A stretch of 64,000 nucleotides of DNA from a virus (Duplodnaviria; Caudoviricetes). Location of the stretch: positions 128,001 through 192,000 of the IMG/VR virus record IMGVR_UViG_3300042892_002922, one strand, 5' to 3'. Every line of letters begins with the position of its first letter. Position 1 is the first letter of the stretch. The notes beneath the pieces are model-generated. The model was not told the origin of the DNA, did no database searches, and was given only the letters and a program-made list of their open reading frames with translations. This document shows, in pieces, positions 14,338-39,957 of this stretch. Position numbers and translations under genes: made by a program.

Positions 14338-16167
14338 ATGAGTAAAAAAATATCGTACACGAATAGAGATTTCGCGGGAATTAGAGAAGAGTTAGTTAAT
14401 TTAACAAAAGATTACTATCCCGAATTAATTAAAAATACAAATGACGCATCAATATTTTCGGTGTCATTGGATTTAAATGCCGCTGTTGCGGATAACTTAC
14501 ATTACCATATAGATAGGGTTTGGCAAGAAACTATGCTGGACTTTGCTCAACAAAAACAATCATTATTTCATATAGCAAAAACATACGGAATTAGGGTTCC
14601 AGGTCAAAGACCGGCCGTTTCATTATGTGATTTTAGTATTAATGTACCAGTTAGAGGTGATAAGGATGATGAAAGATACGAAGGTATCTTAAGAGCTGGC
14701 GCTCAAGTGTCTGGGGGTGGTCAAATATTTGAAACAATTTCTGATATTGATTTTTCTAACCCATTTAATGACAGAGGAGAACCAAACAGATTAAAAATAC
14801 CAAATTCTGATGCCAATAATAAATTGATTTCATATACGATTACAAAAAGAGAAGCTGTTGTTAATGGTGTTACTAAAATTTTTAGAAGAGCAATCACGCA
14901 AAGAGACCAAAAACCATTCTTAAAACTCTATTTACCTGAAAAAAATGTTCTAGGAGTTACTTCAATTATACATAAAGAAGGAACGTCTTTCGGTGCTAAT
15001 CCAAATGCTTCTGAATTTATTAGTTCAACAAATAAATGGTATGAGGTTAAAACACTAATACAAGATAAAGTATTCATTAAAGACCCTACAAGCACTTCTG
15101 ACAAAAAGAATTTTGTTGCAGGTACAAATGTTAAGGTTTCAAATAAATTTATTACAGAATATACACCAGAAGGTTATTTCTCATTAACATTTGGTTCAGG
15201 TAATGTTGATCCATTAGATAATTTGGACAACTATATTACAAGTAATTTAAAGGTTAACCTAGGAACATATCTAAATAATATGTCAATGGGTACAATTCCT
15301 AAAGCAAACACAACCTTATTTGTAAAATATAGGATTGGTGGTGGTAAGGAAAGTAATCTAGGGGTTGGTGTTTTAACAACGGTAGAAAATGTTGATTTTG
15401 TGATGACGGGTCCTTTAAGTTCTATAAATAACCAAGTATCTCAATCATTACAAGTTACAAACGTAACACCGGCTGTGGGTGGGGCGGATCAACCAACTGT
15501 TGAGGAATTAAGAAATATGGTTGCATATAATTTCGCAGCACAAAACAGAGCAGTTACGCTTAATGACTATAAATCATTGATTGAAAATATGCCATCAACA
15601 TTCGGGGCTCCGGCCAAAGTTAATGTAATGGAAGAAAACAACAGAGTGAGAATTAAGTTATTATCATATGATGAGAATGGTAACTTAAGTGATACAGTTT
15701 CTAACACCCTAAAAAACAATATTTTAAATTACTTGTCGGAATATAGAATGATTAACGACTATTTGGATATTGTTAGTGGTGAGGTTATTGATATGGGTTT
15801 AGAAATCGATTTGGTGGTTGATAAAAACCAAAACCAAGCAGATTTATTAAGAGAAGCGATTACTAAAATAACAGCTTATTTCTCAATCGACAAACGTAAG
15901 ATGGGAGACCCATTATTTGTGGGTGATTTGCAAAAAGAAATCAATGATATTTCTGGTATTGTCAACGTGGTCAGTATTAGAGTTTTTAATAAAATTGGTG
16001 GAGAATATTCAACAGCACAGGTTGCTCAAGAGTCAAATCCTATAACAAAAGAAATTGTACAATCTGATTCAACCATATATATGAAAGCAAATCAGATATT
16101 TCAAATCAGATTTCCAAATAAAGATATTAAAATAAGAGTTAAAACCTTAGGTTCCACTACATACTAA
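14338..16167 (+). CDS. Baseplate wedge protein, gp6/baseplate-J-like
   Basis: YTNRDFAGIREEL, LTFGSG, YRIGGG..SN, GGAD..T.EELR and AQNRAVTLNDY motifs. Confidence 0.88.
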   Translation: MSKKISYTNRDFAGIREELVNLTKDYYPELIKNTNDASIFSVSLDLNAAVADNLHYHIDRVWQETMLDFAQQKQSLFHIAKTYGIRVPGQRPAVSLCDFSINVPVRGDKDDERYEGILRAGAQVSGGGQIFETISDIDFSNPFNDRGEPNRLKIPNSDANNKLISYTITKREAVVNGVTKIFRRAITQRDQKPFLKLYLPEKNVLGVTSIIHKEGTSFGANPNASEFISSTNKWYEVKTLIQDKVFIKDPTSTSDKKNFVAGTNVKVSNKFITEYTPEGYFSLTFGSGNVDPLDNLDNYITSNLKVNLGTYLNNMSMGTIPKANTTLFVKYRIGGGKESNLGVGVLTTVENVDFVMTGPLSSINNQVSQSLQVTNVTPAVGGADQPTVEELRNMVAYNFAAQNRAVTLNDYKSLIENMPSTFGAPAKVNVMEENNRVRIKLLSYDENGNLSDTVSNTLKNNILNYLSEYRMINDYLDIVSGEVIDMGLEIDLVVDKNQNQADLLREAITKITAYFSIDKRKMGDPLFVGDLQKEINDISGIVNVVSIRVFNKIGGEYSTAQVAQESNPITKEIVQSDSTIYMKANQIFQIRFPNKDIKIRVKTLGSTTY

Positions 16168-22603: not shown

Positions 22604-23518
22604 ATGAATAAAAATCAATTTCAAATATTACAAAATACCGGAAAAACATTCAATGTGCCAATATTTTTAGAGGCAGATTTGGACGAGATGGGGGTAATGG
22701 TGGAATTTGATGGCGAATTAGAACAAATTGAACAGCTATGCAATTTTACTTATTCTGGAAATGGTAATGCAATTACAGTTTATAATACCGGAAGCACAAA
22801 TAGGTTAAAAAAACTTGTTGAAGCCGAATTTACAGTTGATTGGGGTGACGGTGCATTGTTAACCGGATTTACATTACTATCAAATACATCACACACATAT
22901 ACTAGTAGCGGTGAAAAAACAATAACAATAACAATGGATAGCCCCTGGGGTGTTCAAGAGGTTGAAAAAACAATACAGGTACCTTTGGTTAGCGGGTATA
23001 CCGGCACAAATGCATTAGGAACACTAACGTTTGATGTACCATATACAAGCATTACTGGAGTTACACAAGATTATTTGAACGATTATGATTATGCTACCGG
23101 ACATACGGGTACCACCACTTTCTTAGGTGTTGGAACTAGTAGAGTAGACGAATTAAAATTATATGGTTCAGGAAATTCATACAGTGGAATTACAACCGGA
23201 ACAACAACAGTTGAAGGTGAAACATACGCATATACAGGATACACATTAGATGGATTACAATATAAAGATTTATCTGATGGTTCTACATATATTTCTGGGA
23301 ACACGGCGTCATTTCAAATAGAATCAACAATAAACGCAATGTTAACCAGAAATGAACATTTTTTAGGGTTTATTGATGATCCTGTGATATATTCTGACAT
23401 TTTTGTTGAAAGAGGAAAGCAGGGTGTTTGCGAATATAACTTAAGATTAGGTGAAGTTGACAGTTTAGGTGAGTTAGAAGTGTATGGAAATGGATTTTTT
23501 ACAGTAAGAAAACAATAA
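22604..23518 (+). CDS. Virion protein with a PKD-like domain
   Basis: FTVDWGDG...SHTYTSSGEKTITIT is a PKD signature. Confidence 0.65.
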   Translation: MNKNQFQILQNTGKTFNVPIFLEADLDEMGVMVEFDGELEQIEQLCNFTYSGNGNAITVYNTGSTNRLKKLVEAEFTVDWGDGALLTGFTLLSNTSHTYTSSGEKTITITMDSPWGVQEVEKTIQVPLVSGYTGTNALGTLTFDVPYTSITGVTQDYLNDYDYATGHTGTTTFLGVGTSRVDELKLYGSGNSYSGITTGTTTVEGETYAYTGYTLDGLQYKDLSDGSTYISGNTASFQIESTINAMLTRNEHFLGFIDDPVIYSDIFVERGKQGVCEYNLRLGEVDSLGELEVYGNGFFTVRKQ

Positions 23519-23542: not shown

Positions 23543-24448
23543 ATGGCAGTAGGATCATACGGAATAGTTAGACCAGCAGACGCATCACCAGAAGATGTTG
23601 AAATCATCTACCATTATGCGGCGACAAGGTCGACAGATTCCACCCCAATCTTGAAAAAATTATCTGCAACAGATATTTTAACTCCAGTATATCATAATGA
23701 TAGTACAGGTGCTTCAAATGGTGTTGAAGTTTTAGGTGGTATGTACAATCTAAAATTAGAATCATCAGATTTCACAGATATTGGAATATATACATTACAT
23801 ATTAGACCTAAACAAATTAGAACATTAATAGCTGATTGTGGGGTTTTAGCGTCATTACCATCAGTTAGAGGTATTATTGTAGATTTAGGTAATATTGAAA
23901 CAGAGGATAGAAACAAGTTCACACCTCAAGGTCTAATTGGTCACAGAATTGAATATCTAGATGCTAATCACAAAAAAGTTCCTAATTTTTACCGAATAGT
24001 GACTTCTTCATTTTATTGTGAGCCAATCACATCTAATTTAACAAACTCGTCACAAAAAGCGATTCGTTATAGATACATTGATTCTGCTAGTAATTTAATG
24101 TTTTTGACGGTGACACCATCATCGTCTCCAGCAAACAGACCGAATACAATACCTTTTATTGGTCAGCCAAACCAAGAAATAATCATTACAAATACATACT
24201 TTAACCCAACAACAATTGAGGTTGAAATGGTTGAACATGATGCATCGACATTAGCACTTGCTCTTTATGGTAATCAAACTAAAGCAATTAATAGTGGTAT
24301 ATACAGCATATACAATAAAGAAAATAATATATACAAACAATTTAATCTTTACGAAGTTAAAGACGAATTTAATGAAACATTATATGAAGTTCGTGAAGAG
24401 AGAACAACTATTGATGAATCTTTAAACTTTGATGATATTACAGAATAA
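23543..24448 (+). CDS. Virion structural protein (baseplate region)
   Basis: 301 aa ORF after TATTTAT, coupled to the next gene. Confidence 0.6.
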
Positions 24449-27400
24449 TGGCAAAATATAAGGTACCAAGTCAAGCAACGAGCGGAAATCAAACATTTTC
24501 CGACAGTATTATCGGTAGTCAAATTACCGATGGAACTAGTCAATTGACCAATACCAATTTTGCTTTAGATAAAATCATACCAGAAAAAGATTCAAAATCG
24601 TTTAAAACTGCGCCGTTTTCGGATTTTTTAACATTAGAAGATTTAAAAATTGAAACAGAATCACCAACAACTGTTACACAGTCAACAGGTGAAAAAAGAC
24701 CAATCAAATTTAATGATTCTAAAGCAGATGCCGGAAAATCATTATATGGTTCATTAAGAGAAAGATTTAGAGTTTCAACAGCTAGGATTATTAATAATTT
24801 CCCAGCAGCACTTTTAGCAGATAGTACATCACCTGTTGGTGTTAACAAAAACACCGCTGAAAATATTGTTTACAATATAATTACAAATAGAACTACGTTT
24901 ACATTACAAACATCATTAATGTATAACCCATTAGATGTTGTTTTGGTTGAACCGACAGTTGTTGTTACTGGAGAAACGACAAATAGTATAAGAAATTTAT
25001 ATTCAGCATATAAAAAATATGCCGTTGATGTTAACAACACAACTTATACTGTAACAAAATATACGGAGCCAGATGTTAATAATGTTGTTGGGTTCGAAGT
25101 TATTGGTAAGCCATTTACTGGTTCAACATATACAAGTTCATATTTAATTCGCCCAAATAATGGCGTTGTCGAAGAGTTTTATATAGGGTTAGACGATTTA
25201 GAACAAACAATTTTAAATAGAGAAACACTACCAATATATAAGACAACGTTTCAAATACCTAGAGATACTTCCGGCGGAACAAAAACCGAAATTATTCCAG
25301 TTGAAGTTAATTGGCCAGTATCTAAAGACGGTTGGAATATTAGAATTGTTGGTTTAGAATACCAAAACTATATTGACACTGTTAACTCAATTGCGATTGA
25401 GGTAGATGAGTACAAATCTGATTTAATAATTAGATTTCTATCATCACCACAATTATTTGAATTTGATACAGATGACCAAAAAACCAATAAAATTTTCCAA
25501 TTATATGGTCAAAATTTTGATAAGGTTAAAAAATATATTGACAACATTGCATACATGCGTAATGTTAGTTATGATACCATCAATAACATACCAGATGTAT
25601 TCTTAAAAAACTTAGCAAACACGTTAGGTTTTAATACAATTAATATGTTTGATGAGAAAACATTACAAGATCAAATATATAACGCTTCAATTCAAACATA
25701 CGACGGGGTTTCAATAGGTAAAAACTTAGTTGAAGCAGAACTTGAATTTTATAGAAGAATTGTTGTTAACCTAGCACATATCTATAAATCTAAAGGTACT
25801 AGAAGTAGTTTAGATTTCTTTTTAAGGTTTATAGGTGCACCACCACAAATGGTAAAAATTGATGAGTTCGTTTATAACGTTGAATCAAGTTTACCTAGTT
25901 CAACAATTGAGCAAGATATCTTTGATGTTATGCAAGGCAACAAAGTCAATAAAACGTTAACCTTTAACACTACTGGTTACACATATGACATTGTTGAAGA
26001 AACGGCATCAACATCATTTAGTTCTAGAACCGATTTCCCTGTTGATGAAAATACTGGGTTACCAATATCACCAACAACAAATGATGAGAACGTGTTCTTC
26101 CAAATGGGTTCTGGTTGGTATGAGGAAACATTAGACCATAGATCATATGATGTTTTAGATGAAGCTAATTCAATTACAACAGGTAGAACTAAAACATTAA
26201 AAACCAAATCTAGAGAATTCACATATGGTGAGGACTTCTACAATTATTATAGAACATTACCAGGATTAGATTACGGTTATGAATTAAGAAGTAGTATTGA
26301 TAATGTTAAAGGACAAATAGTCGACGATTTAGATGCAACTAATTTAATATTAAATAGAAAAAATATAAACGTTTTCGTATCATCTTCAAAAGCAATTGAT
26401 TATGATATTTGGAGAAAATCACAAAACTTAACATTATCTTTTGGCACACTAGATGTTCAAACCGAGATTAGTTTTGCTGAGTATCTTGATAACGTATTAA
26501 AAAATCATATTAGAAATTCTCATGTAATAAAATACAAAAAGAATTACATCGCATTAGAAGAAATCTATCGTGAATACATTTCACATTCTGGTTTTACATC
26601 ATACGATTTTGTTAGTGTTTATGAATTTGTTGACAAGATGGGTCCTTATTGGCCTAACATCTTAAATCAAATTATTCCAGCAACAACTTTATGGTTAGGT
26701 GGTAACTTAACAGAGAATAATGTTTTCGGTAGACCAAAATATCAATACGTTAAACCATGTACCCCAACAGAGTTTGTTGATAATTTATATCCTGAATTTG
26801 AAACAGCTATTGAAGAGGATTTAGAAACTTTAATCGGTACTGAATCAAATTTAAGAGGTTTATTAAAACTTACGGGGGTAACATACCATTTAATTGTTGA
26901 CGTTGACGGAGTAGAATATACTGGAGACACTAAAGTTAATTTAACCGGTACCACACTATTTGATCAATTCACACCAAAAACTGGTTGCACTTCATTTGTG
27001 TCTGGAACATCTTATGCTCCACTTATTTGTGACTTTAAAGAATGGATTGGTTTAGATATTTCGACCATAAAAGTTTCTTGGAAAAATGCTTTATCAGATT
27101 TAATTGACCAGATTAATACAACACACACAAGAGATAGTGCAGGATGTATAACTGATTATATACCATATAGTGCAATTACATCAGGAGCAACATGTAATGT
27201 TGATTTACCAATATTATCTCATGAGTTTTTTGTTGACACTGACGGTATTGAAAAAGTTAAATTCTTTTCACAAAAAAACGCTGATGGTGTTTGTACAAAA
27301 CAAATTGATTTCTTCTTCTCTTCAGAATTTTTATATGAAGAGCCACCATGCATGCAAGTTTATGTTTCAACACCTTGCGACATATATGAAGAAGGTACCG

Positions 27401-30400
27401 AAGATTGTCGACTTAAAAGTGATGTTTACATTACAATTAGCGGAGCCACTAGAAATCAAGACGATGTAACTTCTTGGCCGGTTAACATATTTTATGATTG
27501 CGGAGAAAATGCCGAGAATTTCAACGAGAATATTAGTGGTTTAGAAATTCAACAAATTATTGGTGAGCCATGTATGTTTATCATACCAGACGTTTACGAA
27601 GATGGGGATATTGATGGTAATCCAATTGAATTATTATTTACAGACGCAGCAAACTGCGAACAAAAAATAAAAATTGAAGGTCTACAACTTAAAGTAGAGC
27701 ACGATCCATATCCACTAGGATATGGTAGATCACATACACAATTCTTTGAGTTAATTGGTACAAAAGACGCTTTAGTTTTATCAACAATGTCAGGTGTTAC
27801 TTTTTGTGACAACTACACTGGTTACACAATACAACCAAAAGTTCAATATCGCGAAACATTTAATTATGGTATTAAGCACGGGTCAATTGTGTTATCAGGT
27901 GCAACTGGTTTGATAAATGTTTCAGATAAATCAGCAGTTGACGCTGCGATTACCGCTGGTACCTTGATTAAAACTGAAATAGAAAATATAAGACCCGGTG
28001 ATTATATATTATCCGCAGATTTTAATCCATGCCCATTTGCCACAACAGATTTTAGAAACGTGGCAACAAATGGATACTCATTTAGTTTTACATATAAACT
28101 AATTCAAATAACAAATAAAGATTGTTTGGGTTCAGTTAAGAAGCATTTAATTAACAACCAATTTGAAGTTTTACCAACAACAGAATTAAGAATTTTGCGT
28201 GATGGTAATTTCACAAGTGCGTTTCCAGAAGATTTATTATTAAAAGAAACACCACCAGAAGAACCTTGTTGTGATGTTAATGCATCATATTATGACGGAT
28301 ACGCTGGGGATATGTTATTAGATCAGCTTGGTTTCCCAATTGAAGTTGAAACTGTTGAATTAGATTATTGCTCAAGAAGTATATTCTATCACTTGAACTG
28401 GAACGGTACAGGTGATGTGGTTCTTTTTAATGGTGACAATAACAAACAAATCTTATTATCATTCACACAAAATAAATTTGTTTCATTAAACTTTGATTTA
28501 GAACAATTATATGTAAATGGTTCTAACACAAACTATTTCCCTAGAGAAATGGGTATTGAGGATTGTGATAACACACCAGTTGTTGAATGTGGTGAAGTGT
28601 ATGTTGCACAAACAAGAACACCTACACCTACACCTACATTAACACCTACGGTAACACCAACAAAGACGCCAACAAGTACACCAACAAGTACGCCTACTCA
28701 AACTTTAACTAGCACACCAACTAGTACACCAACTAATACACCTACACTAGGTGTTACAAATACACCAACACAAACTGTAACTAGTACACCAACTAATACG
28801 CCTACGTTAACGTTAACGTCTACACCTACTTTAACACCAACTTTAACACCAACAAATACACCAACGTTAACCTTAACCGCTACACAAACACCTACGGCAA
28901 CAATTGAGTGTGATTTTAGTATTCAATATGTTGTAAATACTCCAACACCAACACCTACATCAACACAAACATTAACACCAACTAATACGCCTACGTTAAC
29001 GTTAACGTCTACACCAACCAATACCCCAACATTAACACCAACAGCGACTGTTGATTGTGATTTCGCAATTCAATACGTTGTTAATACACCAACGCCTACA
29101 CCAACTCAAACTTTAACTCAAACTCCGACGTTAACAGAAACGCCTACGAATACCCCAACATTAACGTTGACTAGTACACCTACAGAGACACCAACTCAAA
29201 CACCTACGTTAACACCTACGGCAACAATTGAGTGTGACTTTAGTATTCAATATGTTGTAAATACTCCAACACCAACACCTACACAAACCTTAACAACAAC
29301 ACCTACACAAACCCCAACTAATACTCCAACGGCAACCGTTGATTGTAATTTTGATTTTGATGTAATTGTTAACACACCAACACCTACACCGACTAGCACC
29401 CCAACTAATACTCCAACGTTAACACCAACTGAAACACCAACTAGCACTCCGACCAATACTCCGACTTTAACACCAACAGAGACACCTACATTAACACCGA
29501 CAGAGACGCCTACATTAACACCGACAGAGACGCCTACATTAACACCGACAGAGACACCTACATTAACACCAACACCGACTGTTGATTGTGATTTCGCAAT
29601 TCAATACGTTGTTAATACACCAACGCCTACACCTACACCAACTTTAACTGAAACTCCAACAAATACACCTACGTTAACCCCAACGGCTACTGTAGATTGT
29701 GCTTTTGATTTCGATGTAATTGTTAACACACCAACACCTACACCAACTAGCACCCCAACTAATACACCAACGTTAACTCCAACAGAGACACCGACTGAAA
29801 CGCCAACTAACACACCAACAGAGACACCAACAGAGACACCAACAGAGACACCTACTAATACGCCAACGTTAACACCTACACCGACTGTTGATTGTGACTT
29901 TAGTATACAATATATTGTTAATGACCCAACACCTACACCTACACCAACATTAACAGAAACACCGACTAATACACCTACAGAGACGCCAACATCAACACCT
30001 ACTGAAACACCTACATTAACCCCAACTAATACACCTACAGTAACTGTTGATTGTACTTTTGATTTTAATGTAATTGTTAATACCCCAACACCGACTCCAA
30101 CATCTACACCAACTAATACACCAACGTTAACTCCAACAGAGACACCGACTGAAACACCAACTAGTACTCCTACGTTAACGCCAACAGAGACACCTACTGA
30201 AACACCAACTAACACTCCGACACTAACGCCTACGCCAACAATTGATTGTGATTTCGCGATTCAATATATTGTTAACGACCCAACACCTACGCCTACATCA
30301 ACTCAAACGTTAACACCAACATTAACTGCAACACCAACTAATACACCTACATTAACATTAACGTCTACCCCAACGCCTACATTAGATTGTACATTTGAGG

Positions 30401-31152
30401 CATCATTCACTGAAATGATTGATGAAACACCAGGTGAAGGTGCACCGTGTTCTTCAGGTATGGATGTGGTATTCTTAGTTGATTATACAGGAAGTATGGG
30501 TAGCGCTATTAATGGAGTTAAATCATCAATTGCATCAATTGCAAGTACAATTCAAACAGAATCTAATAATAATTACAGATTAGGATTGGTTATTTTTGAT
30601 GAATATGGTGCGAGCAGTAATCCAAACTACAATAATGATTCAGGTTATTCATCATTACCTAGTGGTCAAAAATATATTAATATAAATTCCGTAGCAAATA
30701 GAAAACAAGTAATTACTGCAATGGAAAAAATGAGTACAAATAATATTTCGTCATTTACTACTCAATTAAATAAAATAAACAATGGAACATTTAGTATTGG
30801 TTCTGGGGGAGGTTCTCCCGAACCTAGTGATATGGGTGTTGATTTAGTTGCAACAAGTGATAAATCGGGGTATGAATATTTTGCCGGCACATTTAGAAGT
30901 AATGTATCTAAATTAATAATTTTAATTACAGACGCTCAACCAGGTGGTGACGATGACGCTTACAGTGCTACCGATGTTACATATGTTAATAGTTTAATAA
31001 CACCATTGTATAATCAAAATATTAAAGTGTTATTAATGACAACGGCACCTAATAACGTATTATATGACTTGGCAACTGGTACAAATGGTGCAACATATAG
31101 TGGATTTAGTGGGGCAAACATAATAACAGCAATACAAAACATATGTCCTTAA
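24448..31152 (+). CDS. Giant baseplate-anchored adhesin: wedge (P2 gpI/gp7-like) region, Thr/Pro-repeat stalk and C-terminal vWA domain
   Basis: [20 protein letters not shown] wedge motif, about 590 aa of TPT repeats, and [12 protein letters not shown] plus [10 protein letters not shown] vWA/MIDAS motifs. Confidence 0.75.
28615..30390 (+). repeat. Coding low-complexity (ACN-CCN) Thr/Pro repeat tract with 10 interspersed Cys modules
   Basis: Direct reading: TPT repeats separated by [IV][DE]C[DN]F[SA]IQY[VI]VN or VDCxFDFxVIVN modules. Confidence 0.95.
29476..29571 (+). repeat. Near-perfect 24 bp tandem repeat x4 (TETPTLTP)
   Basis: ACAGAGACRCCTACATTAACACCR repeated four times. Confidence 0.9.
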
Positions 31153-31165
31153 TATAGAATAAAAA

Positions 31166-33088
31166 ATGGCAAAAAAATATCACATATTAATAACAGGAGG
31201 CACTTCACAAGGACCGTATACGGTATATTATGATAGTGTAAATGTTTCTAATATTGCAACTTTATTTTCAAATAGTAATCCTGCTACGAATTTATCATAT
31301 AGTGATTTAACGACTAGTCCAGGAGTTTTAGTGTCGATGCCAGATTCTATTACAACAATAATTTTATATAACGATAGTTGTAATTCGGACATTACTTATA
31401 TTTTACCTACACCAATCCCAACACAAACACCAACTAATACACCTACAGAGACCCCAACAGCAACACCTACACCAACATTAACAGAAACACCGACAGCGAC
31501 ACCTACACCTACATTAACAGAAACACCGACAAACACACCTACGTTAACACCTACAGCAACAATTGATTGTGACTTTAGCATTCAATACGTTGTTAATACT
31601 GCAACACCAACACCTACACCTACACCTACATTAACACCTACGAATACGCCTACATTAACGTTGACAAGCACACCTACAGAGACGCCAACATCAACACCTA
31701 CTGAAACACCTACGTTAACCCCGACTGAAACACCTACGAATACGCCTACATTAACGTTGACAAGCACACCTACTAATACCCCAACTATTGATTGTAATTT
31801 TGCAATTCAATACGTTGTTAATACTGCAACACCAACACCAACTCCGACACCAACGTTAACACCTACGAATACACCTACATTAACGTTGACAAGTACACCT
31901 ACGGAAACACCAACAAACACACCTACAAACACACCTACATTAACCGCAACTAATACACCAACATTAACACCTACGCTAACACCTACGTTAACACCTACGG
32001 AAACACCAACAAACACACCAACATTAACTTTAACTAGTACACCTACTAATACACCAACTATTGACTGTAATTTCGCAATTCAATATGTTGTTAACACACC
32101 TACACCAACTCCGACACAAACTTTAACAGCTACACCAACATTAACACCTACTAATACTAATACACCTACTCAAACTTTAACTAGTACACCTACATTAACT
32201 GCAACTAATACACCAACATTAACATCAACTAATACACCTACGTTAACGTTGACAAACACGCCTACATTAACATCAACACCTACTAACACACCAACACAAA
32301 CTTTAACTAGTACACCTACTAATACACCAACTATTGACTGTAATTTCGCAATTCAATATGTTGTTAACACACCTACACCAACTCCGACACCAACATTAAC
32401 TGCAACAAGTACACCTACATTAACCGCAACTAATACACCAACATTAACTGCAACAAGTACACCTACATTAACTGCAACTAATACACCTACGTTAACATCA
32501 ACGCCTACTAACACACCAACACAAACATCAACAAACACACCTACATTAACCGCAACAAACACGCCTACACAAACATCAACAAGTACACCTACATTAACAG
32601 CGACAAACACACCTACGTTAACATCAACACCTACTAATACGCCAACGTTAACCTTAACGTCAACGCCAACACCTACACCAACAACAACAGCTTATCTAGG
32701 TTATTACAACTGTGGATACGGTTGTGAATATTACTCAACACCACCAGTTGGATGTATTGAGTGTAATCCAAACGCAACAGATGTTGTAATTAGTGCTTGT
32801 GTAATGGCTGGTGGTAATAATAGTACAACGGTACAAGTAAATTCCGATGTTTCGGTGAACACAAATGTTACCGTTGATGTGAGAATAATTGGTGATTTAG
32901 GTACTGATACCGCGCATACTATAACAATACTTAATGGTTATTTTTGTGCTAGTACTGTAAATGGACCAGCTTTACAAAATTATGAAATCATAACCGATGC
33001 TTGGATTATGGACGTAAACCCAGCATCAAACGGTTCACAAAACTACATAATTGGATTAGTTGCATTAAATAGTTGTTTTGGATGCTAA
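31166..33088 (+). CDS. Thr/Pro-repeat virion appendage protein with a Cys-rich C-terminal domain
   Basis: About 430 aa of TPT repeats with 4 IDC[DN]F[SA]IQYVVN modules, and a C-terminus containing YYNCGYGC and CIEC. Confidence 0.75.
31405..32690 (+). repeat. Coding Thr/Pro repeat tract
   Basis: Direct reading of the sequence. Confidence 0.95.
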
Positions 33089-33134
33089 ACCTTTAGAATA
33101 ATTTGAAATAATAGTATATTTATAGTAGACAAAT

Positions 33135-34229
33135 ATGGCATACGTAACAATAACATTAGCGGCTGGATCTTCCACAAATAGTGGGCCTTTTGATATAATT
33201 GGCACACCTGGGAACGCTTTATTATTTTCTACTCAATCGTATAACGACCTATCAACCGGTCAAGTATATGATATTGATATGGGGATATATACTGGTATTA
33301 CTTTAACTAGTTCGGGTACTTGTAATAATAGTGTTGGACCATATACATTTGATAGTGGACCTGTTTGCTTGTGTGATGAGGGATATACGGTGACAAATGA
33401 TGGTTTAGGTTGTTATAAAGTAACAATAACAAGTGCAACGTCAGTAGACACAAAACAACCAGGAACTGGCGCCGCTAACGGTGCTTATGGCGATTTTGGT
33501 GTTTTGATATACAATGTTAGTGATTTCAATTTAAATGGTAGTTCAACTAGTGGTAATTACGCATATAACGGTAGCTATTTTGGAACTAACGCTAGTATGA
33601 CAGTTAGTGAATTATTCTGGGCTAATAGAATGAATTATAACGGAGTTTGGGTTAGTGGAAACCCAAATTATGTTGGCACACTTAGTTTTTGTACAACAAT
33701 AAATGTTGCAACAACCAAGGTTTATTATATAGGCATTGCTGGTGATAATGAGATTATGATTAAAGTTAATGGAACAACAATAGTAGACCAACCAGCAGGT
33801 GGAACGACAGTTGGCGGATCTACAACTGCGTCAAACAACTTTAAATATTGGCACGTTTATCCATATGTGTTAAACGCTGGGCCAAATATTGTTGAATTAT
33901 CAAACTATAATGCTGGTTCTGTTGGAGATTACGCAGCGGAAATATATGACAACACATTGGCACAATTAACTGGTGCAACTTCAGCAAGTAGTTTAAATAT
34001 AATATTCTCAACTGGTGATTATTTACCAGCTAGGGCGATATCTGGTGTAACAACAGCTGCTTCGGCGGGCTCCGTTCAATTTATTGAAAACGTAGGCGCT
34101 GGTTCAAAATACGGACAAGGTTTCTGTACTAATTATAGTTGCGCAAGTGGATATGTTTTAGATACATCTGATCCAGAAACGCCAACTTGTAAATTAATAG
34201 AATACGCAGTGTGTATTAATTTAACATAA
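33135..34229 (+). CDS. Putative adhesin with EGF-like Cys motifs flanking a PA14-like lectin domain
   Basis: CLCDEGYTVTNDGLGC, YYIGIAGDNEIMIKVNG...LNAGPNIVEL and CTNYSCASGYVLD...PTC motifs. Has its own TATTTAT. Confidence 0.55.
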   Translation: MAYVTITLAAGSSTNSGPFDIIGTPGNALLFSTQSYNDLSTGQVYDIDMGIYTGITLTSSGTCNNSVGPYTFDSGPVCLCDEGYTVTNDGLGCYKVTITSATSVDTKQPGTGAANGAYGDFGVLIYNVSDFNLNGSSTSGNYAYNGSYFGTNASMTVSELFWANRMNYNGVWVSGNPNYVGTLSFCTTINVATTKVYYIGIAGDNEIMIKVNGTTIVDQPAGGTTVGGSTTASNNFKYWHVYPYVLNAGPNIVELSNYNAGSVGDYAAEIYDNTLAQLTGATSASSLNIIFSTGDYLPARAISGVTTAASAGSVQFIENVGAGSKYGQGFCTNYSCASGYVLDTSDPETPTCKLIEYAVCINLT

Positions 34230-34260
34230 AATATAAAATATAAAATATAAAATATAAAAC

Positions 34261-34779
34261 ATGGACATAACAATTAGTTTTTCAACAACACCATCATTAT
34301 CTGTGGGACCTTTTACGGTTACCGTTAGAGATAGTGGTAATACCGCAACACAAACATTTTTAAATGTTACTAGAGCAACAATATTAAGTGGATATTTGAT
34401 TCAAAATATAACTTCTTTAGACGAATCTATTAGAGTAGAAAGTTCTGGAACTTGTAGCACATTAGATACAGTGGACATTAGTTCGGTAACTGGTGGTGGC
34501 GGTGGCGGCGGTGGCGGCGAACACACATCAAATAGCGTATTCTATTATGGTACATCAGATATAAATGCTTGTAACACAGGAACCGCATTACCTGTAACAG
34601 TATTCTACGACGGTCTTTTAAGTTCATTAATGTCAGGAGATTATCTATATGAAGACCAAACTGGTACACCATTAACTTCGGGTTACTATTTCAACGATGG
34701 TTTAACATTTGGATTATTTAATGTTGCGGCAGGAGGCATGATTTCAACAATAAGTGATTGTAGCGGTAGTGCCCCATAA
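34261..34779 (+). CDS. Small virion appendage protein with a poly-Gly hinge
   Basis: N-terminal module shared with its neighbours (VGPFTV...SSGTC) and a 9-Gly linker. Confidence 0.6.
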   Translation: MDITISFSTTPSLSVGPFTVTVRDSGNTATQTFLNVTRATILSGYLIQNITSLDESIRVESSGTCSTLDTVDISSVTGGGGGGGGGEHTSNSVFYYGTSDINACNTGTALPVTVFYDGLLSSLMSGDYLYEDQTGTPLTSGYYFNDGLTFGLFNVAAGGMISTISDCSGSAP

Positions 34780-34800
34780 TCTTTTGACTTATAACTGATT

Positions 34801-34828
34801 AAAACCCCTTTATTTTAAGGGGTTTTTT
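34801..34828 (+). terminator. Rho-independent terminator
   Basis: AAAACCCCTT...AAGGGGTTTT stem followed by a T tract. Confidence 0.8.
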
Positions 34829-34861
34829 ATTTAAATTATATGTAAAGGTATTTATACTATT

Positions 34862-36004
34862 ATGGGTGTTTCAATAAGATTAATTAATATTAGTGGGTCA
34901 ACATCGTATAGCGTGGCGTATTCAACCTCGCCATACGGTTCATTTACAACAGCTCTTACAGGTACGACATCCACAGCAACAATTAGTGGTGCCCCATTTG
35001 AATTCGACACGCAATATTATATTAAACTGACAGATTTGGTTACAAATAGATATATTATTGAAAATATATATATTCACGATAGTAAAGCATACCCATTATA
35101 TGATACAATTGATTTTGATTTAAGTGCTTCATGTGTTCCACCACCATTAACACCAACAGCAACACCTACTTTAACATTAACACAAACACCTACACAAACA
35201 TTAACTGCTAGTATTGGGTTAACACCAACAGCGACACCTACTTTAACATTAACGCAAACACCTACGGCTAGTTTGGCTGAACCATTGCCAGGTTGTGGTG
35301 ATACATTGACAGGAACTTATATTCCAACAGGTTTTACGATTCAAACACAAGCATTAGATTTATCTGAAGCTACTGATGAATCAATAATAAGTGTTGGGTA
35401 CGTTGCGTATGATAGACCAAATAGATTTAATATTTACGGAAATGGGATGTTAATTGAGGATAGCGGATGGGTAGGTGCGGATAACACATATTTTGGACCA
35501 TGGGGAACTGCGGGAAGTTTAACAGATCCAGATGGTACCGGTTCGTTCACATTTACATATCAAAGTGGAATGTCTTATGAATTACGTGTTGACGTTGGTC
35601 CGGCGAATCCACTTGCCGATCCGGCTTATCCTTCTGATGGATGGTCGGTTACATTTACTTGTTTAGGATCACCAACACCAACTCCGACACCGACACTGAC
35701 AGCATCACTTGGTCAATGTTACACATATCGTGTTGCACAAGCTGCGCCTGTTAGCACAACAGAATATGGTATAAGATACAGATATCCTGGATCACTTTCA
35801 ACTGACAATCGCCTCGAAACTTTGTATCAAGGGATAGCAACAATTGAGGGTGTTGATTATTTCACATATTCAATATGTAGTTCGGAGGAACCAACGTGGC
35901 TTGCGATGACAACCCCTAGTTCGGGAACTGGTACGACAGTTCCAAATGGTGTTTATAGATTCGGGCCATTAGGAGGATGTAGTGGTAATCCAGAATGTAT
36001 ATAA
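34862..36004 (+). CDS. Virion appendage protein with short TPT linkers
   Basis: Has its own TATTTAT. Beta-rich domains separated by TPTATPT linkers; YDRPNRFNIY motif. Confidence 0.6.
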   Translation: MGVSIRLINISGSTSYSVAYSTSPYGSFTTALTGTTSTATISGAPFEFDTQYYIKLTDLVTNRYIIENIYIHDSKAYPLYDTIDFDLSASCVPPPLTPTATPTLTLTQTPTQTLTASIGLTPTATPTLTLTQTPTASLAEPLPGCGDTLTGTYIPTGFTIQTQALDLSEATDESIISVGYVAYDRPNRFNIYGNGMLIEDSGWVGADNTYFGPWGTAGSLTDPDGTGSFTFTYQSGMSYELRVDVGPANPLADPAYPSDGWSVTFTCLGSPTPTPTPTLTASLGQCYTYRVAQAAPVSTTEYGIRYRYPGSLSTDNRLETLYQGIATIEGVDYFTYSICSSEEPTWLAMTTPSSGTGTTVPNGVYRFGPLGGCSGNPECI

Positions 36005-36016
36005 TATTTATTAATA

Positions 36017-36307
36017 ATGGCAACATATAATATAACAATATCGAATATAAGCGGAAGCACAACACCGTGTAGTGTTTATAACATTTATACCGGAACTACT
36101 TGGGAAACAATACCAACAACACCGCTTTTTTCTGATGTTGCCATACCATTAAATGGAAAAACATTTCAAATAATATATTCTGGCGCATCAAAATATGTTT
36201 GTGTTTTTGTTGAACATTGCGATGACCATATAACACCAGTACCAAATGCAACGCCTAAAAAACAGGGGGGATATCAAATAAGATTAGTGGAATTAATTCC
36301 ATGTTAA
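36017..36307 (+). CDS. Small virion protein
   Basis: 96 aa ORF after TATTTAT. Confidence 0.65.
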   Translation: MATYNITISNISGSTTPCSVYNIYTGTTWETIPTTPLFSDVAIPLNGKTFQIIYSGASKYVCVFVEHCDDHITPVPNATPKKQGGYQIRLVELIPC

Positions 36308-36317
36308 AGATAAATAA

Positions 36318-37823
36318 ATGGCTAAAGGAGTAACAATAAATTTTACAATAGATTCGGATCATTCACAATCAAATTTTCCTCAATATGTTTATACTGGGTT
36401 AACTGCTGATAATGTGACTGGAACTACAATATGTAATGGGATAACCGCTAGCAGTTGTGCTTTAACAGGTTTAAGCGACACTTTAACACAAGTTTATGTA
36501 AAGATTAATTGCAATGGTTGTGACGACCAAATATTTTTGGTTTCATTAGTAGACCCAACACCAACAGCTACACCAACACCAACTTTAACAGCGACAGCTA
36601 CAAATACACCAACAAGTACACCTACTCAAACACCTACAAACACAACAACCGAAGGTGCGACCCCAACGGCCACGCCAACATTAACGCTAACAGCTACACC
36701 GACAAATACAACATCATCGGTTATAGACCCAACTCAAACAAGTACACCAACTCAAACACCGACAAATACTCAAACAAGCACACCAAGTGCAACATATGTT
36801 TACTATAAACTAAGACCTTGTGAGTATCAAGGATTTACTGGATATTTGGATGGCGATTATGATGTTTGGTCATATTCATTAGTTTCTGGAACATTTAGTA
36901 GTGGTGACAGAGTTGAAGGTAGTGCGAGTTACTATTATGTTGTTATGGGTTCTCAAATGGCAACTACTGACCCAACAGGTGGCGGTACGAAATATACCGT
37001 ATATGCTGTTGAGGGTGAAACAGGTTGTCCGGCACCACCACCATCAGCAACATTAAGAACGGCATATTTAACAGCGGCGTGGGCACATGATGGTTCAGTG
37101 GGTTATATACAACAATTAGCAGATACATGTGGATTATACCCATACCAAGCATCGTCATTGGGGTATACAGGTTTAACACAAGGTGGATCAACATCTTTCT
37201 ATGTTAATGAGGCGTCAATTGTACCAGGAACAATATACACATTATATGATTCAAATATAAGTGGTGGTGGTAATGTTGTAAATGGTGGTGACAAGTACTA
37301 CTCAATATTAATATATGGTAGTGGAAGTACATTCAACTATGTTGTTCGTATAAGTAGTTCGGGAGAATTAAGTGAATGGAATTATTGTACCACACCAACA
37401 CAAACACCAACTCCAACACCAACATTAACAGCAACACCGACATTAACACCTAGTGCGGCCGGGGCACCGGGGTCAGCATGTATTCAAATAACAGAATATT
37501 CTTCACAAGGTACCACTGAATGTTTATCTAATACTGTACCATATTTCTATACCGTTATTACAGCATTATTAACTGATGGTAATGGTAATGCAATGAATGC
37601 TGTTGGTGATGTATATGCCTATGTTAATGTTACGGTAGATGTCCTTTACCAGCAGGAAAATACATATGAATATCCAATTGAAATAAGTAGTGGAACAAGT
37701 TCGGGCACGCTTACCATTGATACATCAGTACCTGTAGATAATGGACAAGGTAATTGTGAAAATGAAACAAGAGTAATAAATTCTTATAGTGCACAAGTCG
37801 GATATAGTATATGCGCACCTTAA
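36318..37823 (+). CDS. Virion appendage protein with TPT linkers and Cys-rich domains
   Basis: TPT tracts, YYKLRPC, CNGCDD and GNCENET motifs. Confidence 0.65.
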
Positions 37824-37854: not shown

Positions 37855-39957
37855 ATGAGCTTTTTAAACAGTAATAATTCAGAATTTTTAACAGCAAGAA
37901 TTACCCAAAAAGGTAGAAAATCTATCGCTGAGGGTAATTTTGTAATAAGTTATTTCCAAATAGGTGATTCTGAATTTGATTACAACTTCACAGGATTCAC
38001 TGGGAATGGTGTAACACCACATCAAAAAGTGTTGGCGCCAATGGATAAAGATGCTCAAGTAAAGTATCCATATAAATTAACATCATCTGAAAGTTTAACA
38101 TACGGTAACCCAATAAAACAAAATACGTTAGATACAATTAAAAATGTTATGGGACCGGCAGGTTTCGTTTCAGATTACGTTGAATATGATTCAGTGGATT
38201 GTACTGGAACAACAATTGCATGTGAGATACAAGAAATATCGTTATCACAAGTTGATGGTACTAATTTATTAACAGTTTTAACTGGTGCAACATACAATGG
38301 TTGTGAATATGTCACAATTCTTTTTAACAGTAGAACCTGCGGTGAGATACCAACATTAACTGGTGAAACAAATAGTTTGGTTTATAAAATTACAGGTATA
38401 ACGGGTAATGAATTAGCGTTTGATAGAATTATGCCAAACTTCTCATCATTAAGTGGTTACGCACAAGTGATATGTCACAATTGTGATGTTGAGTTTGGGT
38501 CTGATACTACAGCAACAACTGTTTGTTCACCATCACCCGTAGATCCATCAGCAGCACATGATCCATGGAGAATGGAAATCGTTTGGACAGAAAAACCAGC
38601 AGGATTAAATGCATCAAATGAAAGTTTAACAGGATATACTGGGACACAATACGCATCAACAAAAGAATATTTAGGATATAATAGTATATCAGGTCAAACA
38701 TTTACAAATTTTACTGGAGGAACACTATCAACACCAACAACATTTGTTAATTCATTTGGTGAAGAAGTTAATGTTAAACCAGAAGACCAAAGAGTAATAG
38801 CAATATTACATTACTCAGAATTAGGAGATTCGGTTAACGACCCTGAAAGATTTTTTAAATACGATGATTACATCGCATCTGAAACTGAAGATGATATTTT
38901 AAGTTTCGAAGTGTACATTCCGTTTATGTTATATCATAGAAATACTGGTACCACTATTGGTGCAGTGTTTACTATGGATGAAACAAATTATTATGTAACA
39001 TCAAGTAAGAACGATAAACCAAATACTAATAATGTTGTATTCAGATATCTTTTAGATGAACAAGGTTATAAAGTTGGTAAAGTTTTCACAGGTAAAAAGA
39101 TAATAGTATTTGATGACCAAGAAATTATAGCAGCATTAGAATACAAATCAAATAGAAGATTCACACTACCTTCACCAAGAGTTAGTGCAGTTCCGGTGGA
39201 TTTACCATGTACTGTTGGGGATCAGCCAATGATAACAAGTGGTGAAACAGCATATATCACATATGAATTAGAACTAACAGGAAATACAGCATTAAGTGGG
39301 ATACATTGTAATTACTATAATAGTGTTACTGGTATATCTGTGAATGCATCAATTAAATTCAATACTGATGATTTCAAGTATATGAATAATAATGCCAATT
39401 TAGTTGGTAGCACCAGCGGATTTAGAGCAAATAAGTTTAAAGCATTAGTTCAAATAGTTTCAGGAAGTACACAACCAGAATCAGATTCTTGGACTGTAAT
39501 AGATTTAACAGACCAAATACCTAACCACACAGTTGGTAGTTTAATTGATCCTGATAATTTATGTGACTATCAGTTTGTTATCGGTCAAGATATGTTAGAT
39601 GGTGGTTCTTTATATTCAATCGGAACAAATACGTCAACAACAGATAATTTAATTGGTTATCAACCAACATTAACTAGCGGTGATGCTACACTTCCACAAT
39701 TTGGTGATAGTCAACCATTTCCAGGTAGTGTTAAGTTAACCAGAGCATCTGATTTAGAGGTTATGACGTTTATGATTAACCTACCGTCATCACAATTCAC
39801 ACAAACTCAGAATCCTACGTATATTTCTGGTGCAACTAAAAGAATTACAGAGGTAGCATTACTAGACGCAAGTAAAAATGTATTGGCGATGTCAAAAACA
39901 GCTAAACCAGTTATAAGGTCTGGAGTACAAGTTTTTGCACTAAAAATTGATTTTTAA
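37855..39957 (+). CDS. Baseplate/tail structural protein
   Basis: N-terminal TARITQKGRKSIAEG..ISYFQIGDSE and C-terminal ITEVALLD...LAMSK.AKP resemble wedge and fibre-attachment proteins. Preceded by TATTTAT. Confidence 0.65.
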   Translation: MSFLNSNNSEFLTARITQKGRKSIAEGNFVISYFQIGDSEFDYNFTGFTGNGVTPHQKVLAPMDKDAQVKYPYKLTSSESLTYGNPIKQNTLDTIKNVMGPAGFVSDYVEYDSVDCTGTTIACEIQEISLSQVDGTNLLTVLTGATYNGCEYVTILFNSRTCGEIPTLTGETNSLVYKITGITGNELAFDRIMPNFSSLSGYAQVICHNCDVEFGSDTTATTVCSPSPVDPSAAHDPWRMEIVWTEKPAGLNASNESLTGYTGTQYASTKEYLGYNSISGQTFTNFTGGTLSTPTTFVNSFGEEVNVKPEDQRVIAILHYSELGDSVNDPERFFKYDDYIASETEDDILSFEVYIPFMLYHRNTGTTIGAVFTMDETNYYVTSSKNDKPNTNNVVFRYLLDEQGYKVGKVFTGKKIIVFDDQEIIAALEYKSNRRFTLPSPRVSAVPVDLPCTVGDQPMITSGETAYITYELELTGNTALSGIHCNYYNSVTGISVNASIKFNTDDFKYMNNNANLVGSTSGFRANKFKALVQIVSGSTQPESDSWTVIDLTDQIPNHTVGSLIDPDNLCDYQFVIGQDMLDGGSLYSIGTNTSTTDNLIGYQPTLTSGDATLPQFGDSQPFPGSVKLTRASDLEVMTFMINLPSSQFTQTQNPTYISGATKRITEVALLDASKNVLAMSKTAKPVIRSGVQVFALKIDF

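Follow-up and report, generated by a model that had tools for sequence, protein, structure and literature searches.

Two consecutive phage genes encode Thr/Pro stalks interrupted by one-Cys modules

The window analysed here is a 64,000-nucleotide stretch of tailed-phage DNA (Caudoviricetes; positions 128,001 to 192,000 of the IMG/VR record IMGVR_UViG_3300042892_002922). It has a GC content of about 32% and encodes a ribonucleotide reductase, a DnaB-type helicase, a primase, an exonuclease and a gp6-like baseplate wedge protein. This study concerns two consecutive open reading frames (ORFs) on its plus strand, 24448-31152 and 31166-33088, encoding proteins of 2234 and 640 amino acids (aa), hereafter protein 1 and protein 2. 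Each contains a Thr/Pro-dominated stalk interrupted by copies of a short, Cys-containing module. Unless stated otherwise, all features described below lie on the plus strand.

Protein 1 consists of a conserved core (aa 1-1382; 24448-28593), a stalk (aa 1383-1983; 28594-30396) and a tip assigned to the integrin beta I-like type of von Willebrand factor A (vWA) domains (30448-31152). The stalk is a low-complexity tract in strict T-x alternation: 364 of its 601 residues are Thr or Pro (246 and 118, respectively, next to 39 Leu), and segments with more than 60% Thr plus Pro span aa 1383-1983. The GC skew of the window is strongly negative over 28-33 kb because of the ACN and CCN codons used there. 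A 204-aa ORF on the minus strand (29601-30215), opposite the Thr/Pro repeats, is most likely no gene but a shadow ORF arising from the low-complexity coding sequence.

The 14-residue modules of protein 1 fall into two types. Type A, [IV][DE]CDF[SA]IQY[VI]VN, is represented by modules 1 (28897-28938), 2 (29044-29085), 3 (29221-29262), 5 (29575-29616), 7 (29881-29922) and 9 (30235-30276), and type B, VDC[NAT]FDF[DN]VIVN, by modules 4 (29332-29373), 6 (29686-29727) and 8 (30040-30081). Module 10, a junction module (30376-30417), starts at aa 1979, at the very end of the stalk. Protein 2 begins with an adaptor domain of about 82 aa (31166-31411), followed by a stalk (31412-32704) with four type A modules (31556-31597, 31781-31822, 32054-32095 and 32327-32368) and a Cys-rich C-terminal domain of about 127 aa (32705-33088). 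Nine modules, the tenth and the four of the next gene give 14 modules in total. An earlier note on this DNA had read the order in protein 1 as A-A-A-B-A-B-A-B-A, followed by a divergent tenth module before the vWA domain and by four type A modules in the next gene; the translation confirmed this description in every detail.

The modules are selected elements confined to one phage lineage

Both proteins share the modules, which are real elements under selection. At the DNA level, the module units of the window are mutually 60-83% identical. Among its 10 type A copies, the proportions of synonymous (pS) and non-synonymous (pN) differences were 0.53 and 0.10, and pN/pS among the window's own module copies was 0.19-0.23, with synonymous sites half saturated. 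The repeats therefore exceed chance and are not recent copies. The earlier note had treated the modules as genuine elements of both proteins, and a pN/pS of about 0.2 together with their retention in distant relatives bears this out.

Comparable modules, 1 to 16 in each, are present in about 50 of 120 core homologues, and IMG/VR loci contain up to 18. In relatives whose cores are 40-58% identical, the central element C-[DE]-F-[DE]-h-D-h-[DN]-h is retained (h, hydrophobic). The consensus over 270 distinct copies reads TPT-P-[ND]-C-[DE]-F-[DE]-[VI]-D-[VI]-[DN]-[VI]-TPTPT, with hydrophobic residues at positions 0, +2, +4, +6 and +8. Such a strand is amphipathic: one face carries Cys, Phe and aliphatic residues, the opposite one mostly Asp. 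When hydrophobic, Pro-free islands between Thr/Pro tracts were searched for without presupposing a Cys, every one of the 285 islands found held exactly one Cys, 279 of them within C-x-[FYVIL].

When IMG/VR was scanned with a DNA pattern for the consensus, all matches lay in core homologues or in the gene directly downstream; at one locus the second gene after the core gene also has the element. The consensus module matched only once in 185,579 species genomes, in a 248-kb contig binned with a Flavobacteriaceae metagenome-assembled genome, where the same cassette is present. The element is an old, lineage-wide feature confined to a single phage lineage.

Relatives that are near-identical to the window differ in their number of modules: 6, 8, 10 or 12 as assembled, counts for which the short-read contigs gave no verification. 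The idea that Cys residues pair within a chain and so impose even numbers was rejected, as distant relatives have both odd and even counts; the even counts of the close relatives are explained by duplication of a two-module unit. Module 10 also precedes other tip domains and other vWA cassettes in relatives. In four lake metagenomes, short-read contigs break within the stalk at the Thr/Pro repeats and none spans the region, so the exact number and order of the modules depend on the assembly from which the window was taken. Four runs contain exact copies of unique stalk pieces, although these runs may include the source sample.

A group of relatives (P0009, P0012, P0035 and P0049-P0058) has a conserved C-terminal tail of about 35 aa which is absent from the proteins of the window. 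It consists of a last Cys strand (CD[IM]x[IY][ED]I..) followed by G-[IL]-I-T-E-[ND]-G-x-x-F-I-x-D-E...E, and could be a docking peptide or a folding aid.

Module spacing increases from the base to the tip of the stalk

The Cys-to-Cys spacing rises from the N- to the C-terminal end of the stalk, that is from base to tip, in all 38 homologues with at least 5 modules (median Spearman rho 0.8); these homologues are mutually related and do not count as 38 independent trials. The median spacing is 26 residues at the first gap and reaches about 45-49 residues by gaps 8-11. Protein 1 of the window shows the weakest trend (rho 0.34): in its spacings of 49, 59, 37, 81, 37, 65, 53 and 65 residues, a duplicated A-37-B-65 unit predominates. 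The strict T-x alternation of the linker makes most spacings odd numbers. The smallest spacing found anywhere is 17 residues, with usual minima of 21-23. This minimum is about that of the shortest possible strand-plus-return coil, which favours an arrangement of the modules as stacked rungs. The gradient itself could be neutral, with new units born near the base and older linkers expanding.

AlphaFold2 predicts a beta-solenoid for the stalk of a relative

Single-chain AlphaFold2 models provide the only positive structural evidence on the modules. The stalk of P0009, the closest distinct relative (58% core identity), was modelled without an alignment as one chain of 346 aa with 11 modules spaced by 27-37 residues. 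The model obtained was a compact all-beta body (predicted template modelling score, pTM, 0.77; mean predicted local distance difference test, pLDDT, 70.7), in which the module strands reached pLDDT values of 85-91. Its predicted strands are satisfied within the chain. Asn or Asp at both strand ends, together with stacked Phe and aliphatic positions, is the pattern of parallel beta-helices. Exhaustive structural alignment of the model gave curli CsgA from Pontibacter (8c50) as the best match (Z 14.9 over 269 residues, root-mean-square deviation 9.6 Å), followed by beta-helical autotransporter and streptococcal adhesins, tailspikes and a Ca-dependent antifreeze protein. A search of the ESM Atlas with the same stalk agreed with the likeness to a solenoid (template modelling score 0.60). 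Foldseek returned no match for the stalk model at E <= 0.001; the solenoid likeness comes from the exhaustive aligner.

For the window itself, modelling of the stalk with its tip produced modules 1-4 as strands with partner strands in the linkers, at pLDDT values of 64-74 that make them weakly modelled. A three-copy complex prediction of one A-37-B unit scored 0.01 and yielded no model, which is evidence neither way. The earlier note had proposed that the modules zip separate chains together in a floppy filament. As stated, this proposal is not supported, since AlphaFold2 stacks the strands within one chain. Stapling by disulfides and pairing between the two proteins, which that note also suggested, would be consistent with the invariant Cys and with those relatives in which the next gene has only one module.

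The tip of protein 1 is a vWA domain carried as a mobile cassette

Sequence and predicted fold identify the tip as an ordinary member of the vWA family. When aa 1985-2234 were scanned alone, they passed the cut-off of the Pfam family VWA (PF00092; E 6.1e-6, 27.0 bits for a cut-off of 23.8); in the full-length scan the match stayed below it (17.2 bits). VWA was also matched in 40 of 41 relatives, and relatives of the domain number 572 among 1.84 billion representative proteins. The metal-ion-dependent adhesion site (MIDAS) has the variant form D-x-T-x-S (DYTGS). Counting from aa 1985, D28 is invariant in the 41 relatives and T30, S32, T106 and D178 are at least 90% conserved. The motif aligns to the DLSYS motif of integrin beta-1, and a near-invariant Cys is found at each end of the domain. 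AlphaFold2 modelled the tip as alternating strands and helices, an alpha/beta fold, with pLDDT values of 90-98, and kept module 10 outside this fold (pLDDT around 40). The best Foldseek matches were integrin beta I-like domains (probability 1.00, E 5e-7). Sequence searches of the PDB gave no match for the tip alone and only weak integrin matches for its profile (E 0.025). The vWA domain with a MIDAS variant recognised in the earlier note therefore holds, given the Pfam cut-off passed, the conserved metal-site residues and the predicted fold.

The same tip, 71-73% identical, occurs on relatives whose cores are only 46-47% identical, and it is found behind many different N-terminal adaptor domains. 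It is therefore a mobile cassette. In the lake metagenome run X3, a contig covering the vWA tip (30429-31127) carries 17 differences in 699 bases and has about 7 times the depth of the flanking phage contigs, pointing to a strain of higher abundance or to a related phage whose tip is a variant.

Protein 2 and its neighbours share an N-terminal adaptor domain

The N-terminal 82 or so residues of protein 2 are homologous to the first 75 or so residues of the products of the genes at 33135 and 34261. An hhalign comparison of the profile of the protein 2 class with the profile including these two N-termini gave a probability of 95.9% (E 5.4e-9). The products of the genes at 34862, 36017 and 36318 start with a loosely similar segment of about 75 aa, seen in a loose MAFFT alignment only. 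Six consecutive genes (31166-37823) thus open with a similar beta domain of about 75 aa, and protein 2 is, as judged from these alignments, mounted by an N-terminal adaptor domain common to the five downstream genes. The Cys-rich C-terminal domain of protein 2 has no Pfam family and, among core homologues, only a 28-aa match; the single PHROG match of the protein falls on its Thr/Pro region.

Adaptor-type genes follow the core gene in four of five loci compared (L001, L002, L003 and L005); in L004, two downstream genes were inspected and both lack the adaptor domain at their start. The cores of L002 and L005 have no stalk and no modules, yet adaptor genes are present there in the same numbers, so the adaptor does not depend on the modules. 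In eight related loci (L001, L003, L006, L010-L013 and L016), the gene after the core gene encodes an adaptor that a short Thr/Pro spacer separates from one module, at about aa 137-153. Within a phage, module types match between the core gene and its downstream module-bearing gene.

The body of the 33135 product is 50% identical (E 6e-92) to the tip that ends the module-bearing stalk of P0009, so tips move between core-fused and adaptor-fused mounts. This product (33135-34229) combines the adaptor with a Cys pattern resembling epidermal growth factor (EGF) domains, with weak Pfam matches to cEGF and FXa_inhibition (E 0.006-0.04). The 172-aa adaptor-type protein encoded at 34261-34779 has a run of nine Gly after the adaptor, where its neighbours have Thr/Pro, and a weak PHROG match to a virion structural protein (E 3.2e-5).

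The core gene belongs to a conserved baseplate cluster of large freshwater phages

The core, which occupies the first 1380 aa or so of protein 1, has more than 150 metagenomic homologues at 40-100% identity. Many consist of the core alone, with about 1373-1416 aa; others have variable C-terminal extensions with BspA-type leucine-rich repeat, discoidin, cadherin, SprB or Fib_succ domains. The N-terminal 800 or so residues are the most conserved, and the C-terminal half (aa 770-1380, approximately) is Cys-rich, several of its Cys being invariant or nearly so. Together with the Cys of the EGF-like and vWA domains, this suggests that these putative virion proteins depend on disulfides or metals. 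The core has no sequence match in Pfam, PHROG or the PDB, the latter including a search with the core profile, and no usable match in the ESM Atlas. Neither the region nor the core matched INPHARED phages by megablast or tblastn.

The gene of protein 1 sits in a baseplate gene cluster with a conserved order. The gp6-like wedge protein of the window is encoded at 14338-16167 (PHROG 6, E 2.7e-18), and a gene of the gp25 family lies upstream of the core gene in the related locus L005. In L001-L005, the order is fixed as a gp25-like gene, a gp6-like gene (610 aa), five genes, the core gene and variable accessory genes. We presume from this gene order that the core of protein 1 is attached to the baseplate; to this extent, the placement at the baseplate suggested in the earlier note is supported.

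In L002, L004 and L005, the accessory genes are followed by a gene for a protein of about 700-725 aa and in two of them (L002 and L005) resolvase-sized and primase genes come next; the stretches examined for L001 and L003 end before this position. The window likewise encodes, after its variable fibre genes, a 700-aa protein without a family match (37855-39957). Its counterparts measure 704-725 aa in L002, L004 and L005, and those of L002 and L005 resemble it at their N-termini. It may be another structural component. Within the baseplate cluster, a 304-aa product (22604-23518) has a sub-threshold PKD match (E 7e-5, 23.2 bits for a cut-off of 27).

Contigs of the lineage carrying the element are 200-350 kb long and come from freshwater samples. 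At least 99% of sampled words of the core sequence are present in lake or freshwater metagenomes of at least 15 studies. The lineage probably infects Flavobacteriia. Similar large aquatic phages of Bacteroidota are described in the "moraphage" paper, which does not discuss fibres (PMC12619734).

Discussion

We propose that protein 1 acts as a variable arm that bears an adhesin and is built on a conserved protein of the baseplate cluster in a large freshwater phage, and that the Thr/Pro region of this arm is more than a plain mucin-like tether: its ten-residue modules would form amphipathic beta-strands, with Asp, Asn, Ser and Gln on the face opposite the Cys, Phe and aliphatic residues. The interpretation we favour, tentatively and at somewhat less than even odds, is that the modules act as rungs stacked into a beta-solenoid or cross-beta spine, to which both proteins may contribute. 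They would stack parallel and in register, and the Thr/Pro tracts would form the return arcs or, where long, protruding loops. Stacking is predicted within one chain, and by analogy with curli subunits it might be extended by matching rungs of the neighbouring protein; in the window these would be the four type A modules of protein 2, and in relatives the lone module encoded by the equivalent gene. A single strand is unable to fold by itself, so the module of a single-module protein must pair in trans. In curli, solenoid repeats stack both within and across subunits, and loop insertions are tolerated (PMC10192328). The invariant Cys, flanked by Asp or Asn, would form a ladder near one turn, which disulfides or a metal could staple after release of the virion from the cell. 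The vWA tip would be held by this spine and may contribute to adsorption by binding a host surface ligand via its metal site.

Several observations weigh against stacking. Without an alignment, AlphaFold2 tends to turn any periodic, beta-prone sequence into a solenoid, and the runs included no shuffled control; ambiguities of alignment-free predictions have also been noted for curli (PMC10192328). In the window, the linkers are long (37-81 residues from Cys to Cys) and modules 5-10 were modelled with pLDDT values below 50. In a stack, most of the stalk would remain as loops and the tip would end up near the baseplate, which is odd for a tether meant to extend reach. Many relatives have Asp at four positions of the outer face, and stacked Asp repel each other strongly unless bridged by cations. 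Finally, exactly one Cys per module suits a symmetric disulfide between chains at least as well, and a metal node equally well.

These caveats of the solenoid models are real, and we have therefore kept our preference for stacking tentative and regard as less likely, yet as the main competitor, a model of inter-chain clasps close to the idea of the earlier note. Here, a homo-oligomer, for example a trimer as in most phage fibres, would hold its Thr/Pro chains side by side as a long flexible fibre in which equivalent strands pair in register, the single Cys stapling each node through an inter-chain disulfide or a shared metal. The growing spacing, observed in all 38 relatives, and the alternation of types would then act as a register code and make the base stiffer than the tip. 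The one-Cys rule, followed by all 285 islands, fits such clasps, as do the single-module proteins with their need for a partner strand, and acidic outer faces would be tolerable in an isolated node. Module-free Thr/Pro tracts serve as plain spacers between globular domains in relatives, so reach seems to be the basic role of these tracts. Other parts of the system also look disulfide-dependent, such as the near-invariant terminal Cys of the vWA domain and the 33135 product with its weak EGF-like matches. The tip of the T4 long tail fibre offers a precedent for repeated metal nodes along a trimeric fibre. However, clasps have no positive structural evidence, and the single-chain model of the P0009 stalk satisfies its strands internally. 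A node of two or three ten-residue strands would be only marginally stable, and three Cys on a threefold axis cannot all pair. Clasps would also permit spacings shorter than 17 residues, which are not seen.

Other explanations are considerably less probable. Each module could bind the adaptor domain of a downstream gene by beta-strand addition, making the stalk the trunk of a branched adhesin tree. The run of six adaptor genes and the hhalign match between their classes speak for this, and branched fibre complexes assembled through N-terminal adaptor domains exist in other phages such as CBA120 and phiKp24 (10.1101/2022.03.15.484430). Adaptor genes are equally numerous in L002 and L005, where stalk and modules are missing, which means that the adaptor has another docking site, and the number of modules (0-18) does not track that of adaptor genes; a docking role for the modules is thus largely rejected and has little chance of being right. 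We see a slimmer chance still for the Cys as a chemical handle for a thioether or thioester to Thr or Gln, for modification by a phage enzyme or for capture of a host ligand. The Cys is absolutely conserved while adjacent positions vary, its surroundings are extremely Thr-rich and type A has a Gln five residues after it; against this, the modules of most relatives lack that Gln, no modifying enzyme was found beside the genes, and the conserved alternation of hydrophobic residues points to a strand and not to a reactive loop. The least probable reading, which is largely refuted, leaves the modules without a role at the protein level, as relics of repeat expansion, anchors for recombination or artefacts of assembling a low-complexity region. 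The variable module number of near-identical relatives, the contig breaks within the stalk and a spacing gradient that births near the base and slippage in older linkers could produce are all compatible with it. It is contradicted by the low pN/pS at half-saturated synonymous sites, the retention of the motif at 40% core identity, DNA copies that are only 60-83% identical and the exact recurrence of unique stalk pieces in four runs, with the reservation on their source already mentioned.

The stacked-rung reading also has a bolder form, which we consider improbable. The rungs of both proteins would co-stack into one cross-beta spine, an amyloid-like, self-templating zipper in the virion that folds only outside the cell in response to Ca2+ or oxidation and is locked by the Cys ladder; its graded loop lengths would let the tether pay out stored Thr/Pro rung by rung under load. 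If true, such a load-extensible tether could matter for a phage holding on to gliding Flavobacteriia.

Phage fibres are usually viewed as continuous folded trimers, and Pro/Thr tracts as featureless spacers. Here, an abundant lineage of freshwater jumbo phages uses stalks of one-Cys strands to carry swappable adhesion domains (vWA, EGF-like, cadherin/SprB and discoidin). Settling between stack, clasp and partner binding would reveal a new way to build a virion appendage of adjustable length. The element would also provide a sequence signature for host-recognition genes in uncultured phages of Bacteroidota, and might serve protein engineering as a small, portable linker organiser.

Comparison with known systems

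Overall, the system belongs to a known kind: an arm for host recognition by a phage, mounted in a baseplate cluster and fitted with exchangeable tips. The part for which we found no description in the literature on Pro/Thr fibre linkers, vWA phage fibres or jumbo phages of Bacteroidota is the stalk, with its conserved one-Cys strands in a Pro/Thr linker, its graded spacing and its restriction to one phage lineage. As in the tailspikes of CBA120 and the fibres of phiKp24 (10.1101/2022.03.15.484430), consecutive fibre genes share an N-terminal mounting domain and have exchangeable tips. Unlike in those systems, the adaptor of the window has no detected relationship to theirs, and they have no Thr/Pro stalks with Cys strands. 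The tip shares with integrin beta I-like and other vWA adhesins (PF00092) the D-x-T-x-S...T...D metal site and a predicted alpha/beta fold, and with von Willebrand factor A domains the Cys at both ends; it differs from integrins in being only about 17% identical and mounted on a phage fibre.

The gp37 tip and gp12 of T4, as well as triple beta-helix or beta-spiral shafts, combine His-bound ions with a continuous folded shaft. The phage stalk resembles these metal-stapled trimeric fibres in its repeated short strand units, in a conserved ligand residue per node and in a receptor-binding tip carried from the baseplate; its nodes, in contrast, are separated by 10-70 residues of Thr/Pro. The Als adhesins of Candida, which are anchored in a eukaryotic cell wall, have one short amyloid-forming sequence per molecule, without Cys, in a Thr-rich stalk, and this sequence has been proposed to zip molecules together. 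Short strands prone to beta-aggregation within a Thr-rich adhesin stalk are thus common to both, whereas the window has many Cys strands per molecule, and in a phage protein. The Pro/Thr linkers of cellulases and scaffoldins and the PTS tracts of mucins are similar in composition and in their use as spacers, exactly the use made of module-free tracts in the relatives, and they differ by the lack of embedded conserved Cys/Phe strands.

The closest structural parallel is provided by curli CsgA/CsgB (8c50; Sleutel et al. 2023, PMC10192328), which gave the best match to the predicted stalk of the relative and whose repeats are parallel-stacked within a subunit. Curli repeats also stack across subunits and have ladders of Asn/Gln and hydrophobic residues (PMC10192328). 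The match has a high root-mean-square deviation and is not accompanied by any sequence relationship: the module consensus is unrelated to the curlin motif of PMC10192328, and a Pfam scan of both proteins found only VWA families and no curlin repeat (Curlin_rpt). The phage repeat would be made of one long strand and a Thr/Pro return, whereas that of curli is a strand-arc-strand unit. The phage element also differs by its invariant Cys and graded loop length, and it would be part of a virion protein made in the cytoplasm, in contrast to the secreted fibre subunit of curli.

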